From Candidatus Jorgensenbacteria bacterium GW2011_GWB1_50_10 (lineage in GTDB: Bacteria > Patescibacteriota > Minisyncoccia > UBA6257 > GWB1-50-10), in the NCBI GenBank assembly GCA_001004105.1, contig LCQK01000002.1, positions 347 to 64,346 of the forward strand: a DNA stretch of 64,000 nucleotides, written 5' to 3'. The first letter of the stretch is position 1, and every line of letters begins with the position of its first letter. A program made the position numbers and the translations under genes. Under the pieces are notes generated by a model. It made no database searches. It saw only the letters and a list, made by a program, of their open reading frames with translations, and was not told the DNA's origin. This document shows, piece by piece, positions 10,076-47,029 of the stretch.

Positions 10076-10303
10076 ATGAGGAAACTTCAAGGGACGGTTG
10101 TCTCCGACAAAATGAATAAGACAAGAGTGGTGGCGGTGGAGCGCCTTAAAAAGCACCCCCGCTACGGCAAGTATTTCAAGGTGACTCGGCGGTTTAAAGC
10201 TCACGACGAAAAAAACGAATATAAAACCGGGGACAAGGTTGTCATCCAAGAAACAAGGCCGATTAGTCGCGAGAAGCGCTGGGTTATCGTCGAAAAAATA
10301 TGA
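10076..10303 (+). CDS. rpsQ: 30S ribosomal protein S17
   Basis: S17 OB-fold sequence ([11 protein letters not shown]...). Confidence 0.9.
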
Positions 10304-10444
10304 CCCGGTACAATTACACCGCTTGCGCTAAAGGCGCACGTCATCAAAAATTAAAAATCAAAACTATGCTGCATACTCACCAAAGGTCAATGCGTATCAA
10401 ACCTACTCTGTCATTCAAGAGAATGGCGGTGTAATTGTACCGGG
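10304..10444. repeat. Intergenic hairpin element, family A, copy 2: perfect 19-bp stem (CCCGGTACAATTACACCGC / GCGGTGTAATTGTACCGGG) enclosing a 103-nt loop; fills the whole rpsQ-rplN gap
   Basis: The 5' arm begins at the first base after the rpsQ TGA stop. The 3' arm ends at the base before the rplN ATG. The loop begins TTGCGCTAAAGGCGCA, which resembles the copy-1 sub-hairpin. Confidence 0.65.
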
Positions 10445-10810
10445 ATGATACAAGAGCGAAGCATATTAAAAGTGGCCGACAACAGCGGAGCAAAACTCGT
10501 CCGCTGCTTCCGGATTTTGGGCGGTTCCAAGCGCCGTTACGCACAGATTGGCGATGTCATCGTGGTTTCCGTCCAGACGGCCGAGCCGCGGAAAGCGGTG
10601 AAGAAAAAGGATGTGGTGCGCGCGCTCGTTGTAAGGCAGAGGGCACCCATCCGCCGTTCGGACGGCACCCGTCTCCGCTTTGACGACAACGCCGTGGTCC
10701 TCGTTGATAAAAAGGAACCGAAAGCGACCCGAATTTTCGGGCCTATTCCCAGAGAAATCAAGGAAAAGGGCTACGACACCATTGCTTCCCTTGCGGAAGA
10801 ACTCGTCTAA
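10445..10810 (+). CDS. rplN: 50S ribosomal protein L14
   Basis: MIQ..ILKVADNSGAK is the L14 signature. Confidence 0.95.
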   Translation: MIQERSILKVADNSGAKLVRCFRILGGSKRRYAQIGDVIVVSVQTAEPRKAVKKKDVVRALVVRQRAPIRRSDGTRLRFDDNAVVLVDKKEPKATRIFGPIPREIKEKGYDTIASLAEELV

Positions 10811-10816
10811 AAATCC

Positions 10817-11122
10817 ATGAAAATCAAGAAAGGCGACAACGTAAAAATCATGAAAGGCAAGGACCGGGGGAAAACCGGCAAGGTTATTAAAGTTGACGAG
10901 GAAAAAGGCCGCCTCACGGTGGAAGGCGTAAATCTTTTCAAAAAGCACGTCCGGCCGAAGCGCCAGGGTGAAAAAGGCGAAGTCGTCTCCGTCGCGAGGC
11001 CGCTTGCCGTCTCGAATGTGATGCTCGTTTGTTCTTCCTGCGGCAAGGCCTCCCGGGTTGGATTTAGGATTGATAAGGAAATAAAAGAGCGATACTGCAA
11101 AAAGTGCAAAAGCGCAATTTAA
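10817..11122 (+). CDS. rplX: 50S ribosomal protein L24 with a C-terminal CxxC...CxxC zinc-ribbon-like extension
   Basis: KOW core MKIKKGD.V.I..GKDRGK; C-terminal CSSCGK...CKKCK. Confidence 0.88.
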   Translation: MKIKKGDNVKIMKGKDRGKTGKVIKVDEEKGRLTVEGVNLFKKHVRPKRQGEKGEVVSVARPLAVSNVMLVCSSCGKASRVGFRIDKEIKERYCKKCKSAI

Positions 11123-41148: not shown

Positions 41149-41673
41149 ATGACTCCTGCGCAAAAGCGGATAACGGTGCAAGTTTCCATTGCTTTGGGGA
41201 TTGTGGGCGTTTTGGTTGCAGGTCTCATTTTTTTCGGTTTTAACATCAAAAACCTCACCCAAAAAATCGTGGCGGCAAGGGAAGAGCTTGCGTTGAGAAC
41301 GGTGGCTCTCCAATCGCTTGCAACGTTGCGGGCCGATTACACGAGCAAGGCCGAGGCCTATTTGAACGTTTTGCACAACATCATTCCCCAGAAAGACGAG
41401 CTTATAGACCTTTCCAAAGATTTCCAGACGATTGCTTCGGCATCGGGATTGGAATACGGCTTCACATTTTTGGGGGAGAATCCGCCAGCTGCCGGCGCCC
41501 TGGGTTCGGTGAAGTTCGGCTTGAAACTGGGCGGCACTCTAAATAAGCTTCTGGAGTTCCTGAAAAATATCCAAAATTTCCGTTATCTTGTCCAAGTGGA
41601 GAGCGTTTCTATTTTCCGGGAAGAATCAATGATGAGAATGAACTTGAGCGGCAGTGTTTATTTTAGACAATAA
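41149..41673 (+). CDS. PilO-like type IV pilus assembly protein (tentative)
   Basis: N-terminal TM, coiled coil, then a C-terminal domain with PilO-like spacing. Confidence 0.4.
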   Translation: MTPAQKRITVQVSIALGIVGVLVAGLIFFGFNIKNLTQKIVAAREELALRTVALQSLATLRADYTSKAEAYLNVLHNIIPQKDELIDLSKDFQTIASASGLEYGFTFLGENPPAAGALGSVKFGLKLGGTLNKLLEFLKNIQNFRYLVQVESVSIFREESMMRMNLSGSVYFRQ

Positions 41674-41917
41674 AATGAAAATCAATTTAGGATTTCTTTC
41701 AAAATTAAAGAATAAAAAACCATCCCGCGGCGGCAGTAAGCAATTCACCTTCATCGCCCTCGCTTTCGTGATGCTCGTTGTGGTCGCGCTTTTCGTTATT
41801 TACAGTTTCACCTTTCTTATTTCGGAGTTTAATGACGTTTCCGGACAACAGATTTCGCCGCCGCCGGTGCCACGATTTGACATTCAGGGTTTCGAAAAGC
41901 TAGATTTGACTAAGTAA
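41654..41917 (+). CDS. Hypothetical small membrane protein
   Basis: One TM segment; overlaps the upstream gene's end. Confidence 0.35.
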   Translation: MFILDNKMKINLGFLSKLKNKKPSRGGSKQFTFIALAFVMLVVVALFVIYSFTFLISEFNDVSGQQISPPPVPRFDIQGFEKLDLTK

Positions 41918-42001: not shown

Positions 42002-42694
42002 ATGGTTTCCGTTATTTACGAGGATGAGAATTTTATTGGTCTTTCAAAACCGGCCGGCGTTTTGGTTCACAAAACCGCAAAAAACGAGCAGGAAGAAACG
42101 GTAGCGGATTGGCTGGTTAACCGTTACCCGGAAGTGAAAAGCGTCGGGGATGCGCCGGGGGTCCGGCCAGGGCTGGTTCACCGATTAGACAAAGAAACTT
42201 CCGGAGTTCTCGTCGTTGCCCGAAACCAAAATAGCTTCAAGTATCTGAAAGGCCTTTTTCAAGAGCACAAAATTATCAAAAAATATGTTGCCCTTGTGCA
42301 CGGCAAACTTGAAGGAAACGGCGTGATTAACGTGCCGATAGGACTGAAACCCGGGACGGTAAAAAGAAGTGTGCGGGCCAAGAACATGAAGATGGTTAAG
42401 GAAGCGGTAACGGAATACAGAGTCCTGAAAAACTTTGAAAAAAGCGGCGAATTTTTCACTTTGGTCGAACTTATTCCTAAAACCGGTCGGACTCACCAAT
42501 TGCGGGTTCATTTGGCGAGCATTTATCATCCGGTTGTGGGGGATATACTTTATGGTCCGAAGAATAATTCCTTGGGCATGAAACGGCAATTTTTACACGC
42601 CAACTCATTAGAATTCGTGAACCAGGAAGGTGCCCGTCTCAGGTTAGAAGCGGGGTTACCCCGGGAACTTGAAGAAACTCTTTCAGCTCTTTAA
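42002..42694 (+). CDS. Pseudouridine synthase, RluA/RluD family
   Basis: HRLDKETSGVLV catalytic-Asp motif. Confidence 0.88.
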   Translation: MVSVIYEDENFIGLSKPAGVLVHKTAKNEQEETVADWLVNRYPEVKSVGDAPGVRPGLVHRLDKETSGVLVVARNQNSFKYLKGLFQEHKIIKKYVALVHGKLEGNGVINVPIGLKPGTVKRSVRAKNMKMVKEAVTEYRVLKNFEKSGEFFTLVELIPKTGRTHQLRVHLASIYHPVVGDILYGPKNNSLGMKRQFLHANSLEFVNQEGARLRLEAGLPRELEETLSAL

Positions 42695-42695
42695 T

Positions 42696-42731
42696 AACTA
42701 TTTTCTTATTCGCGCGAATAAGAAAATAGTT
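42696..42731. repeat. Perfect 36-nt palindrome AACTATTTTCTTATTCGC|GCGAATAAGAAAATAGTT immediately after the rluD stop
   Basis: Seen directly; a T-run follows 10 nt later. Confidence 0.5.
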
Positions 42732-42773
42732 AGAATTTGACTTTTTTATCCAAGAAATTATCATTACTCCATA

Positions 42774-43094
42774 ATGATTCCAACTGAAGTTTTAGAAAAA
42801 ATTAGGCCCGGCGCGCGGGTGAGAGTTTGGGAACGTATTAAAGAAGGGGATAAGGAGCGGCAAAGCGCTTTTGAAGGCATCGTTTTGGCGCGCAAGCATG
42901 GGGATGAGGCGGGCGCGACTTTCACCGTCCGGGCCATTTTGCAGGAAGTGGGCGTTGAGAAAGTTTATCCCGTTCATTCGCCGGTTATCGCGAAAGTGGA
43001 GGTTATTTCCAGCCCGAAAAAAGTAAGCCGCGCCAAGCTTTATTTTTTGAGGAAGCTTTCGCCTAAGAGAGTGGCGGAGAAACTAAAGATTTAG
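42774..43094 (+). CDS. rplS: 50S ribosomal protein L19
   Basis: L19-like sequence. Confidence 0.92.
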   Translation: MIPTEVLEKIRPGARVRVWERIKEGDKERQSAFEGIVLARKHGDEAGATFTVRAILQEVGVEKVYPVHSPVIAKVEVISSPKKVSRAKLYFLRKLSPKRVAEKLKI

Positions 43095-43182
43095 ATTTCA
43101 TTAGATTCCGATCCCCACAGTCTTTTTTATTTCATTATATTTGGTATACGCTATAAACTTGAGGTATGATATAATAAGAAAA

Positions 43183-43848
43183 ATGGGGAAAAGGGGACCG
43201 AAGCCGAAAAGAAAGGTGGAAATCAGATGGTCGCCGGAATTTGCTTATGCCCTCGGGCTTTTGGCTACCGATGGGAATCTTTCTTCGGATGGCCGGCACC
43301 TTGATCTCACTTCTCAAGATAAAGAACAGCTTTTGAATTTTATGAAATGTCTTAGGATCAAGGTGGAAATTGGTTATAAAACTTCCGGGTTGAGCGGAGA
43401 AAGAACAGCCCGGGTTCAGTTCGGAGATGTCAATTTTTATAAATTTTTATTAAACATCGGTTTTTCACCCAACAAGTCGAAAACCATAGGGAGATTGGAT
43501 ATTCCGGATAAGTATTTCTTTGATTTTCTCCGAGGTCATTTTGACGGCGACGGTACTTTTTATTCTTATTGGGATCCGCGCTGGAGGTCGAGTTTTATGT
43601 TTTACACGGTTTTCATTTCGGCCAGCAAAGGTCATATTCAGTGGTTGAGAAAAAAAATTAATGAAACGTTGCCTATAAAGGGGCACATAACCAAGAGTAA
43701 AACCCAATCCACTTATAATCTTAAATACGCTAAAAGAGAATCATTAAAATTACTGAAAAAAGTTTATTATTCTCATAAAGTAATTTGCCTTTCTCGCAAA
43801 CGTTTGAAGATTGAAAAAGCTTTGGCTATAATGGGAGCGAAGCTATAA
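43183..43848 (+). CDS. LAGLIDADG homing endonuclease (double-motif, free-standing)
   Basis: Motifs LGLLATDGNLS and LRGHFDGDGTF; AT-rich; TATAAT about 10 nt upstream. The listed ORF starts at TTG 43141. Confidence 0.75.
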   Translation: MGKRGPKPKRKVEIRWSPEFAYALGLLATDGNLSSDGRHLDLTSQDKEQLLNFMKCLRIKVEIGYKTSGLSGERTARVQFGDVNFYKFLLNIGFSPNKSKTIGRLDIPDKYFFDFLRGHFDGDGTFYSYWDPRWRSSFMFYTVFISASKGHIQWLRKKINETLPIKGHITKSKTQSTYNLKYAKRESLKLLKKVYYSHKVICLSRKRLKIEKALAIMGAKL

Positions 43849-43849
43849 T

Positions 43850-43934
43850 GCCCAGGTGGCGGAACTGGAATACGCGTGCGTTCGAGGGGCGCATGCCGCA
43901 AGGCTTGCGGGTTCAAATCCCGCCCTGGGCACCA
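43850..43934 (+). tRNA. tRNA-Leu, type II with a long variable arm; anticodon most likely GAG; CCA encoded
   Basis: Acceptor GCCCAGG/CCTGGGC; T arm GCGGG-TTCAAAT-CCCGC; 13-nt variable arm; discriminator A. Alignment to canonical tRNA-Leu(GAG) puts GAG at positions 34-36 but gives C at position 33. A reading as Ser-CGA would need a G-G mismatch in the anticodon stem. Confidence 0.7.
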
Positions 43935-44001
43935 GTAAGGAATTTGCAAGCAAGAAACGAATTGGCGGTTTCGTTTGGGGGAAAGAAAAATTTTTAATCA
44001 T

Positions 44002-44451
44002 ATGGAAACAGAAAATACAACTTTCAGTTATGCTGGCTTTTGGAAAAGATTTGCCGCTTTTATCATAGATATGTTTATCGTGTCTATCGGTGGCTTTATT
44101 ATTGGTTTTATATTCGGAGTTCCCTACGATGTTCTCACTGGTAAAGCCGAGTTCGCTGGATTTGCCGAAGATTATATTCTTAGTTTCATTTTGAGTTTTT
44201 TGCTTGTTTGGATTTACCAAGCAGTTATGGAAAGTTCTTCTAAACAAGCGACTCTTGGCAAAATGGCTCTTGGAATAATAGTTACTGATTTGTCTGGCAA
44301 GCGTGTATCTTTCGGAAAGGCATCGGGTCGCTACTTTGGGCAGATACTTTCCGGGTTTATCCTCGGCATAGGATTTCTCATGATTGCTTTTACTGCAAGA
44401 AAACAGGGGCTTCACGATAAAATGGCTGGTTGTCTTGTTGTGAATAAATAA
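44002..44451 (+). CDS. RDD-family membrane protein
   Basis: Blocks FWKRFAAFIIDMFI and ATLGKMALGI...GLHDKMAGCLVV are typical of RDD. Confidence 0.65.
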   Translation: METENTTFSYAGFWKRFAAFIIDMFIVSIGGFIIGFIFGVPYDVLTGKAEFAGFAEDYILSFILSFLLVWIYQAVMESSSKQATLGKMALGIIVTDLSGKRVSFGKASGRYFGQILSGFILGIGFLMIAFTARKQGLHDKMAGCLVVNK

Positions 44452-44831
44452 TGTTTCCATATCGCCGATTTTTATTTCCCCGAGAAGACTATCCGGAAAA
44501 TTGGGACGAATTGAGAAAAGCGGTTTATCGCAGAGACGGATGGCAATGTCAGCAGTGCGGTGCTAGAAATATCCAACTCCACGCCCACCACCAAACTCCG
44601 TTGTCTGCGGGTGGCTCTAACGACATGAGCAACCTGATTACTCTTTGTAAAAATTGTCATATTGATGACCATCCGCACATGTGGTGGGGTAGGTGGAAAG
44701 AAAACAATCCCCAAACCGTTCTCGCACTTCGTATTATTGTTCTCGCCATAGCAATCTCGTTACTTATAATATCTGGCTTTAGTTGGTGGAAAGTTATAAT
44801 TTTAATAATTGTACTTCGACCTTTATTCTGA
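44451..44831 (+). CDS. HNH endonuclease domain protein with a C-terminal transmembrane anchor
   Basis: Block CQQCG...LHAHHQ...NL..LCKNCH, followed by a hydrophobic LALRIIVLAIAISLLIISGFSWWKVIILIIV tail. Confidence 0.65.
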   Translation: MFPYRRFLFPREDYPENWDELRKAVYRRDGWQCQQCGARNIQLHAHHQTPLSAGGSNDMSNLITLCKNCHIDDHPHMWWGRWKENNPQTVLALRIIVLAIAISLLIISGFSWWKVIILIIVLRPLF

Positions 44832-44844
44832 TTTAATATGAATT

Positions 44845-44932
44845 GCCGCCAAAGAAAAACTTGAAATTGTCAGCGGTGCGGCTCTGCCGCCAAAGAAAAA
44901 CTTGAAATTGTCAGCGGTGCGGCTCCGCCGCC
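44845..44932. repeat. 41-nt tandem direct repeat x2.1 (GCCGCCAAAGAAAAACTTGAAATTGTCAGCGGTGCGGCTCY) upstream of gyrB
   Basis: Seen directly; the units differ at one position. Confidence 0.8.
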
Positions 44933-45106
44933 TTTCCGAATTTTCACGGGGGGATTTCCTCGCCGCCGCAGGCGGCGAAATGCGTTCGGACTAATTCAAG
45001 AATACTGCACAAATAGAAAGGCCTCTGGGCCGTTTTTGCTCAGATTTTACGCTTGTTTTTGGCCCTAAATATGGTAAAATTAAAGAGCCCGTAAGAGGGG
45101 CTTTTT

Positions 45107-47029
<1,923 letters not shown>

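Follow-up and report, generated by a model that had tools for sequence, protein, structure and literature searches.

What is a small membrane-protein gene doing next to a nuclease gene behind a tRNA gene, and does the short repeat between this pair and gyrB have a function? The locus lies in a 64-kb stretch of DNA (the window) from an uncultured groundwater bacterium; coordinates are window positions, except that those of loci L061-L180 are quoted in element-forward orientation. An earlier note on this DNA had reported an open reading frame (ORF) for an RDD-family membrane protein, an ORF for an HNH nuclease whose start overlaps the RDD stop, and a 41-nt repeat upstream of gyrB, all of which are present. 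We read the ~1.08-kb segment at 43935-45012 as a short island that lacks a recombinase gene, sits at the tRNA-Leu(GAG) gene, carries the RDD and HNH genes as cargo and belongs to a Paceibacteria-type island family of the candidate phyla radiation (CPR), and we put the probability of this reading at roughly two in three. Behind it stand the anatomy of the segment, its recurrence, the diversity of the cargo, the occurrence of RDD and HNH apart from each other, purifying selection on both genes, and a duplication that was not found elsewhere. The proposed order in the window is tRNA-Leu, B′ remnant, module C, RDD, HNH with its transmembrane (TM) helix, an element with its first 41 nt duplicated, and the flank to gyrB, with the following features.

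43850-43934, plus strand: tRNA-Leu(GAG) (ARAGORN), 3′ end ...GGGCACCA; left boundary of the proposed island and its presumed integration target
43935-43973, minus strand: module B′ in shortened form, left over from the 3′ coding end of a large serine recombinase gene oriented towards the tRNA
43974-44001, plus strand: module C, TTTGGGGGAAAGAAAAATTTTTAATCAT, the shared 5′ module immediately preceding the cargo start codon
44002-44451, plus strand: RDD-family membrane protein with three TM segments, 149 aa, cargo gene 1 (Pfam, hydropathy)
44451-44831, plus strand: putative tail-anchored HNH (ββα-Me) nuclease, 126 aa, cargo gene 2 (Pfam, AlphaFold)
44844-44884, plus strand: extra copy of element nt 1-41 (the duplication), ending ...GGCTCT (TRF; nhmmer model 1-48)
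44885-45012, plus strand: complete ~126-nt right-end element (nhmmer model 1-126, E=2e-43); right boundary of the proposed island
45013 onward: chromosomal flank beyond the island towards gyrB, beginning AAATAGAAAGGCC
45107-47029: gyrB, downstream of the island

The proposed island and its relatives

The segment directly behind the tRNA, GTAAGGAATTTGCAAG...AAACGAATTGGCGGTTTCG in the window, aligns to the sequence after tRNA-Leu(GAG) in locus L117, where an intact recombinase gene ends with it. Module B′ is the reverse complement of the last ~40 codons of that gene and module A is the stretch just ahead of B′; a weak tblastn match places recombinase residues 471-499 on the window minus strand (E=0.03). 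The recombinase combines Resolvase, Recombinase and Zn_ribbon_recom domains in 510-550 aa, as in large serine recombinases. Full-length genes lie between the tRNA gene and the cassette in about nine of the listed loci, among them the full forms L092, L095, L117 and L147, and read towards the tRNA, while fragments occur in 46. Module C (ATTTTGGGGGAAGAAAATTTTTTAATC) is found 414-1032 nt upstream of the element in about 75 cassettes among the listed loci, immediately before the first start codon, and also directly upstream of the recombinase ATG in L092 and L117. The window copy gives a blastn-short match at 43978-43999, and homology to other RDD cassettes begins at 43974, the start of C. The conserved non-coding modules can be identified as pieces of the recombinase gene and its surroundings.

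In about 14 tRNA genes, representing 11 anticodons, and in 14 copies of the element, the terminal ...GCACCA is succeeded by B′ sequence. The junction of ...GCACCA with (G/C)NAAGGAAATTGCAAG occurs at about 14 tRNAs including that of the window, a precise and recurrent junction at the tRNA 3′ end. Full islands of ~2.4-2.7 kb with a recombinase gene are seen in L092, L095 and L117, and short islands of 0.5-1.8 kb, in which the B′ remnant alone stands before the cargo, in the window and ten other loci. Cassettes were delimited by module-anchored extraction, from C to the element, and their boundaries in other contigs coincide with 43974, 44448/9 and the element.

The RDD-HNH cargo follows tRNA-Leu in the window, tRNA-Phe in L022 and tRNA-Tyr in L023. 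Conversely, the rluA-rplS-tRNA-Leu(GAG) site holds different cargo in L117, L119, L064 and L017; L117 has a full island with a cyclodipeptide-synthase-like cargo gene at the position of the LAGLIDADG-like ORF and tRNA-Leu(GAG) of the window. Finding one cargo at several targets, and several cargoes at one target, is what marks a mobile unit. Cargo is highly diverse, with 87 ORFs in the ~75 cassettes falling into 72 sequence clusters, which include an APH-type kinase, cyclodipeptide synthase, HIT protein, aspartate carbamoyltransferase (ATCase), Na/Ca exchanger, TIM-barrel enzyme, methyltransferase, asparaginase, NUDIX protein and many small membrane or secreted proteins. The L117 cargo gene (10165-10920; Pfam CDPS, E=1.4e-13) is an unexpected secondary-metabolism gene for a CPR genome. 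The rluA-rplS-tRNA-Leu(GAG) region (window 42002-43934; L117, L119, L064, L017, L173, L082) is an insertion hot spot with differing cargo in at least six genomes.

A full island, placed immediately after a tRNA CCA end, consists of a recombinase gene directed towards the tRNA, module C, one or two cargo ORFs and a conserved ~126-nt element ending in GCACCA. In the short form the recombinase gene is cut to a 3′-end remnant (B′) of ~40-130 nt fused precisely to C, and short forms may be non-autonomous derivatives. We hypothesize that the recombinase inserts islands at tRNA 3′ ends, and the element end plus B′, which are contiguous in arrays, could represent an attP-like or tandem junction. Cargo genes would be read from module C, which may act as a promoter. 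The model predicts a circular or tandem junction in which the element end ...AATACTGCACCA is joined to GTAAGGAAATTGCAAG, and an empty site in which tRNA-Leu(GAG) ...GGGCACCA is joined directly to AAATAGAAAGGCC.

Several points weigh against this reading. The 64-kb window has no recombinase gene, only ~40 nt left from the 3′ end of one. Neither an empty site nor a circular junction was seen, and an empty-site search via the identical L19 protein returned only members of the same population, with the island present; the case for mobility is therefore one of comparative anatomy. Measured against a tRNA island of a serine recombinase, the window unit has the recurrent junction and the exchange of cargo and sites but no recombinase gene of its own. 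The tRNA targets have little sequence in common beyond GCACCA, unlike what is typical of sequence-specific serine integrases, and the window element copy itself ends in GCACAA, not GCACCA. A consensus promoter scan calls no promoter in module C. It should also be noted that the loci were picked by an exact 20-mer from the element, which biases the set towards one conserved subfamily.

A simple attP × attB model for the junctions before C was rejected as well, as it does not account for all arrangements: element nt 1-28 are recombinase codons, the A-C and B′-C junctions are precise, and an inverted core copy is present. These two precise junction types are found in 38 loci (A-C) and in at least 25 (B′-C), and many loci have recombinase genes with an identical large internal deletion (aa ~55-450). 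The recurrent junctions and the shared deletion suggest secondary recombination sites. In full islands (L092 3461-5345, L117 8392-10161, L095, L147) the recombinase gene lies between inverted copies of its 3′ end (module B), and an inverted copy of the element core lies between the module upstream of the recombinase (C′) and the cargo module C. The recombinase gene also contains a palindrome between two N-terminal fragments that recur in the flanks.

Tycheposons of Prochlorococcus, a minority of which use large serine recombinases (bioRxiv 10.1101/2020.12.28.424599), and tRNA islands resemble the present units in integrating at tRNA genes, in their variable cargo and in leaving degraded, integrase-less remnants beside tRNA genes, which become hot spots. 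The units described here are, however, far smaller (0.5-2.7 kb, one or two cargo ORFs, without a replication module), their junction lies after the CCA end and not inside the tRNA, and their right end is a conserved ~126-nt element, not a partial tRNA copy. In addition, their host is a CPR bacterium and their conserved flanks are recombinase-gene fragments. The layout is also analogous to that of integron cassettes, which are likewise short, mostly single-ORF units with very diverse cargo and a conserved end site of ~60-140 nt; they sometimes form direct arrays, read from an upstream module that they share. An integron cassette array was nevertheless rejected: IntI tyrosine recombinase and attI are absent, the associated enzyme is a large serine recombinase, and the element is conserved in sequence and not in structure only, occurs in both orientations and has no attC-type folding signal.

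A search of a literature library found nothing joining Patescibacteria with 'large serine recombinase', and a broader search likewise found nothing on such CPR elements; the island family appears to be undescribed. More tentatively, and at somewhat below even odds, the RDD-HNH unit may be one cassette of an undescribed cassette-capture system of CPR bacteria (Paceibacteria), in which a serine recombinase would insert units of one or two genes after the CCA of almost any tRNA, or after the GCACCA of units already inserted so that arrays arise, and would move recombinase-less cassettes in trans.

The right-end element

A metagenome scan with a 20-mer from the 41-nt unit returned at least 120 contigs, in which the 20-mer always lies within a ~126-nt element with unrelated flanks. 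The element has the consensus TGCCGCCAAAGAAAAACTTGAAATTGTCAGCGGTGCGGCTCCGCCGCC...GTTCGGACTAATTCAAGAATACTGCACCA and occurs in two main length classes of 119 and 131 nt. Its ~97-nt core ends ...CTGCAC(AA) in the window, and most other copies end in GCACCA. The element profile matches 129 loci among those listed, 45 of them with more than one copy. Direct arrays have copies ~1 kb apart, and very often an inverted partial copy (model 27-126) lies ~0.8-1 kb upstream. Copies are seen in both orientations, and some are fragments that break off at position 27/28. Element nt 1-28 match recombinase codons ~31-40 (YAAKEKLEIV) exactly and lie inside the recombinase ORF in L092 and L117. In RDD relatives without HNH (L017, L011) the sequence of the 41-nt unit directly follows RDD, and in HNH-only loci the first 17-27 nt of the unit follow HNH. 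A divergent element subfamily with a different 3′ half (...GGCGGCGAAAGTYCGAGCTATYTCAAGCGTAGMCCRC) was found in L086, L093, L096, L099 and L179, with two copies 900 nt apart in L093.

The element does not resemble a miniature inverted-repeat transposable element (MITE), as its 5′ end TGCCGCCAAAG and 3′ end AATACTGCACC are not inverted repeats and no flanking duplication was seen. A phage origin was rejected, since the conserved block C is absent from viral contigs and eight matches to block B occur by chance without the rest of the element. The AAAGAAAAACTTGAAA motif was considered as a promoter and dismissed: it has no consistent -10 box at the right spacing and is recombinase coding sequence.

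The alternative that survives best, which we still regard as improbable, is that the element is a structured small RNA or 3′-untranslated-region element whose function is changed by the 41-nt duplication, and not the DNA-level end of a mobile element. By eye, the CCGAA/TTCGG and CTTGAA/TTCAAG pairing variants are G.U-compatible on the plus strand only, a GC hairpin is swapped for a different short hairpin in the second length class (119 versus 131 nt), and many copies have an intrinsic terminator, or an immediately adjoining tRNA gene, downstream. However, the RNAalifold consensus of 79 distinct copies is weak (-7.7 kcal/mol) with almost no covariation, and folding z-scores are -0.7, +0.4 and -1.6. 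Searches with Rfam 15 of the window and L022, in gathering and E-value modes, returned no family at threshold for the repeat or the element, the best chance matches having E > 0.01 and lying far below gathering scores. Nor would an RNA be expected from copies in both orientations, from fragments broken at 27/28 or from a first 28 nt that is recombinase coding sequence, and we continue to read the element as the right end of the island.

The RDD and HNH genes as probable cargo

RDD proteins are widespread and have three TM segments. The window protein has a Pfam RDD match (PF06271) over profile positions 1-137 of 137 (E=1.2e-29, 103.7 bits versus a cutoff of 24.1), hydrophobic segments at residues 20-38, 58-76 and 112-130, and the conserved Arg/Asp/Asp at R16, D23 and D138 (FWKR16FAAFIID23 and GLHD138, read from the translation). 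The full-domain score, the three TM segments and the conserved residues place it in the RDD family, alongside Bacillus subtilis YckC and a protein of Halobacillus andaensis reported to be a Na+(Li+,K+)/H+ antiporter (PMC5996927). Compared with many of the 2217 homologues found, it is minimal at 149 aa, without zinc-ribbon or GYF_2 N-terminal extensions. Its ratio of nonsynonymous to synonymous substitution rates (dN/dS) of 0.05-0.11 indicates purifying selection. The protein (44002-44448) also aligns with the PD-T4-6 phage-defence profile of PADLOC over its 140 C-terminal positions (E=2.6e-13), a match at the domain level only; RDD domains therefore also exist fused to defence proteins.

The HNH ORF matches Pfam HNH (PF01844) at E=1e-9 (38.8 bits versus a cutoff of 21.4). 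The core spans residues ~13-78, with C33, C36, C66 and C69 as the four cysteines plus H46/H47, N61, H70 and H74, and C33, C36, H46, H47, N61, C66, C69, H70 and H74 are invariant across nine homologues. The AlphaFold model (mean predicted local distance difference test score 81, core 88-93) shows a ββα core followed by helices 75-85, 87-108 and 112-122, and in Foldseek the core superimposes on the HNH domain of McrA with a root-mean-square deviation of 1.5-1.7 Å over 60-64 columns (probability 1.00). Profile score, HH...N...H motif with Cys4 ligands and the predicted ββα-metal fold thus all identify an HNH/His-Me finger protein. A C-terminal TM helix, as the earlier note had proposed, is borne out by hydropathy, with a strongly hydrophobic 19-mer at residues 89-107 ahead of a second, short hydrophobic stretch, and by the modelled helix at ~87-108. 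An N-terminal signal sequence is absent. We infer an N-in, tail-anchored protein whose zinc-finger catalytic domain faces the cytoplasm, because of this absence and the Cys4 zinc site in the N-terminal domain.

The same note had called this topology unusual for an HNH nuclease, a view that the relatives contradict. Close homologues are rare: a word-indexed search found 11 proteins, five of them from Parcubacteria (70-94% identity) and one from an ANME-1 archaeon, and the hydrophobic tail is present in all seven closest. A profile search of 1.84 billion representatives returned 4,740 relatives at E<=1e-10. Since 99 of the 149 best-scoring of these carry at least one strongly hydrophobic 19-mer before or after the HNH domain, membrane tethering is, to judge from sequence, the norm in this subfamily and not an oddity, and the cargo protein may belong to a large, uncharacterised family of membrane-tethered HNH nucleases. 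Within this best-scoring set (P0132-P0280), the 99 tethered relatives have 1-7 hydrophobic helices N- or C-terminal to the nuclease, and many members are archaeal or Chloroflexota-like; the subfamily signature is YPxNWDxxRxxVxxRDxxxCxxCG...HAHHxxPLSxGGxN...NLxTLCxxCHxxxHPHM. Among the profile-search relatives no characterised member of the tethered subfamily was found, and no membrane-bound form among the solved or named relatives found (IscB HNH, group II intron En, McrA, GVE2, Gme, ZorE, Cap5). The core is closest to IscB and group II intron En domains. The ββα-Me fold, Cys4 zinc site and HH...N...H motif are common to McrA, the GVE2/Gme HNH nicking enzymes, IscB/Cas9 HNH and ZorE, whereas the window protein consists only of an HNH core and a C-terminal TM helix or hairpin, and none of those small nucleases is membrane-anchored.

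HNH has a dN/dS of 0.05-0.19, loci without RDD included, with 0.04-0.17 for the core and 0.1-0.6 for the TM tail. With ratios well below 1, both the RDD and the HNH gene can be taken as functional. Because the catalytic and zinc ligands are invariant and both core and tail are under purifying selection, the HNH protein is most likely catalytically active, as a metal-dependent DNase or nickase on the cytoplasmic side of the membrane. A role of this protein as an accessory factor against incoming DNA or in addiction is conceivable in view of its frequent toxin-antitoxin neighbours and its place in mobile islands, though we consider it rather unlikely.

The earlier note had further read the two genes as an operon and a nuclease pair that suggests a small defence or competence-like module. 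The operon stands, in so far as the genes make up one cassette that resembles a transcription unit: the RDD stop TAA (44449-51) and the HNH ATG (44451-53) overlap by one base (TAATG). The pair does not. Matches of PADLOC and NCBIfam are at the domain level only and below family cutoffs, which speaks against membership in a known defence system, and ZorE (26.8 versus 600 bits) and IscB (58 versus 175 bits) align through the HNH domain alone. Checked for co-conservation, each gene is found alone elsewhere. HNH occurs without RDD in L001-4, L005-7, L008-10 and L023, for example at 76% identity between proline dehydrogenase and NYN genes (L001) and at 88% identity between ParE-like and HigB-like toxin genes (L005-7); the ANME-1 homologue lies near a HicA/B pair and another homologue amid unknown genes. 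RDD, at 75-95% identity, occurs without HNH in L011-20: after HicAB (L011-13), before recG (L014-16), after IF2-RbfA-NrnA (L020) and, in L017, at the syntenic rluA-rplS-tRNA-Leu locus after a toxin-antitoxin pair. Nucleotide homology stops exactly at the gene junction 44448/44449 in all of these RDD-only and HNH-only loci. The genes are adjacent only in L021 and L022, copies at least 90% identical to the window (93% and 90% nucleotide identity, for the cassette alone). In L023/L065 the RDD-HNH cassette recurs but has an internal deletion in RDD, and in L149 the final 55 nt are all that remains of HNH. At 28 genome loci of more distant HNH relatives, no RDD ORF was found. On these comparisons the two genes do not co-occur at evolutionary distance, as a two-gene system should, and are best described as independently evolving accessory genes, ordinary cargo and not a dedicated defence device. 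What holds of the proposed accessory module beside a tRNA is the accessory, mobile region; the dedicated two-gene system does not.

The contrary view takes RDD and HNH for two dedicated components, either of a membrane module that serves defence, competence or DNA uptake or of a toxin-immunity pair, with RDD partnering or controlling the nuclease. It could draw on the one-base overlap, on purifying selection in both genes with similar dS between cassette copies, on the RDD domain at the C-terminus of the PD-T4-6 profile and the ZorE-like HNH at the domain level, and on HNH relatives among toxin-antitoxin genes. We consider it very improbable: each gene stands alone in the loci named above, the 28 distant HNH loci lack RDD, family-level matches fall far below curated cutoffs, and purifying selection on HNH persists where RDD is absent or deleted.

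Equally improbable is that HNH is a free-standing selfish gene of the homing type, which entered between RDD and the element on its own and spreads without the island. The HNH unit, which runs from the ATG to ~40 nt beyond the stop, has sharp limits in each of four contexts, is present or absent downstream of RDD, and has a core most like IscB and group II intron En domains. However, an ~85-aa core plus membrane anchor leaves no DNA-binding specificity domain, there is no target-site evidence, and HNH-only loci carry part of the island element along, which fits recombination within island DNA better. We therefore retain the reading of both genes as island cargo.

The 41-nt duplication, the flanks and the meaning of the proposed island

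TRF reports a 41-nt period at 44844-44932 with 2.2 copies and 97% matches. The unit is the first third of the ~126-nt element, so that the window holds a complete copy preceded by an extra nt 1-41, and it is found nowhere else in the 64-kb window; a genome-wide repetitive extragenic palindromic (REP)- or MITE-like repeat was ruled out, the unit occurring at this one locus and the element having no terminal inverted repeats. Three independent assemblies of the same population (L181, L182, L183), located by their identical L19 protein, align to window 42701-45200 without a mismatch; the only difference is one 41-nt gap, and they carry one copy of the unit. Of the two window copies, the first ends in T and the second in C. 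C is also the base in the single-copy assemblies, and L149 and L094 have a single copy with the T allele. Element position 41 is also the site of unrelated insertions in L022, L068, L105, L116 and L170. The duplicated segment is flanked on both sides by GCCGCC microhomology, which fits slippage. Because the duplication is missing from assemblies otherwise identical over 2.5 kb, it can be regarded as a strain-level polymorphism or an assembly artefact or chimera and not as a conserved feature.

The earlier note had offered a regulatory or recombination site. A conserved regulatory site is contradicted by the three single-copy assemblies, and 'recombination-related' is nearer the truth because the duplicated unit belongs to a conserved mobile-element end. 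That the tandem duplication is a functional repeat upstream of gyrB can be all but dismissed: its copies are 97% identical and lie 175 nt upstream of gyrB, but it is missing in L181-L183, all of the ~180 other element copies are single bar the unrelated insertions at the same position, and a terminator-like hairpin and a separate extended -10 promoter-like sequence intervene before gyrB.

In the gap between island and gyrB (45013-45106), inspection by eye showed a short T-run hairpin (AAAGGCCTCTGGGCCGTTTTTGC) and a promoter-like sequence of the extended -10 type (TTGTTT-N16-TGGTAAAAT), both absent from the consensus scanner list. The upstream neighbours of the island are rluA, rplS, a LAGLIDADG-like ORF and tRNA-Leu(GAG). 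The free-standing LAGLIDADG endonuclease-like ORF (43141-43848, likely start ATG 43183; PHROG 4645, E=5e-31) ends 1 nt ahead of the tRNA, and two sigma-70-like promoter matches for tRNA-Leu (43804-43849) fall within its 3′ end. A homologue at 60% identity is located at the equivalent position in L117 (7624-8274), and more distant ones adjoin the 126-nt element in L067, L138, L146 and L102. Rfam at gathering threshold finds only tRNA-Ile in the whole window and misses the long-arm tRNA-Leu(GAG) that ARAGORN calls. Two small overlapping ORFs 5′ of tRNA-Ile (41149-41917) each encode a single N-terminal TM helix and are PilO-like (pilus assembly) by eye only.

For the locus itself, the gene pair should be seen as ordinary accessory cargo and the repeat as a non-conserved duplication, and neither should be taken for a defence system or a gyrB regulator. 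The HNH subfamily to which the cargo nuclease is assigned appears to be typically membrane-tethered as a whole, an architecture that none of the solved or named relatives found has. Serine integrases do not usually act at so short and generic a site as the proposed target GCACCA, which could make the enzyme of interest for genome engineering. The genomes of CPR bacteria are tiny, and how these bacteria exchange genes is little understood. The compact recurrent architecture of tRNA 3′ end, recombinase or remnant, module C, hyperdiverse cargo and 126-nt end could explain hot spots of variable genes beside tRNAs in CPR genomes. If true, cassette capture would parallel integrons, with a serine recombinase as its enzyme, and would be one of the main ways in which organisms with such minimal genomes exchange accessory genes.

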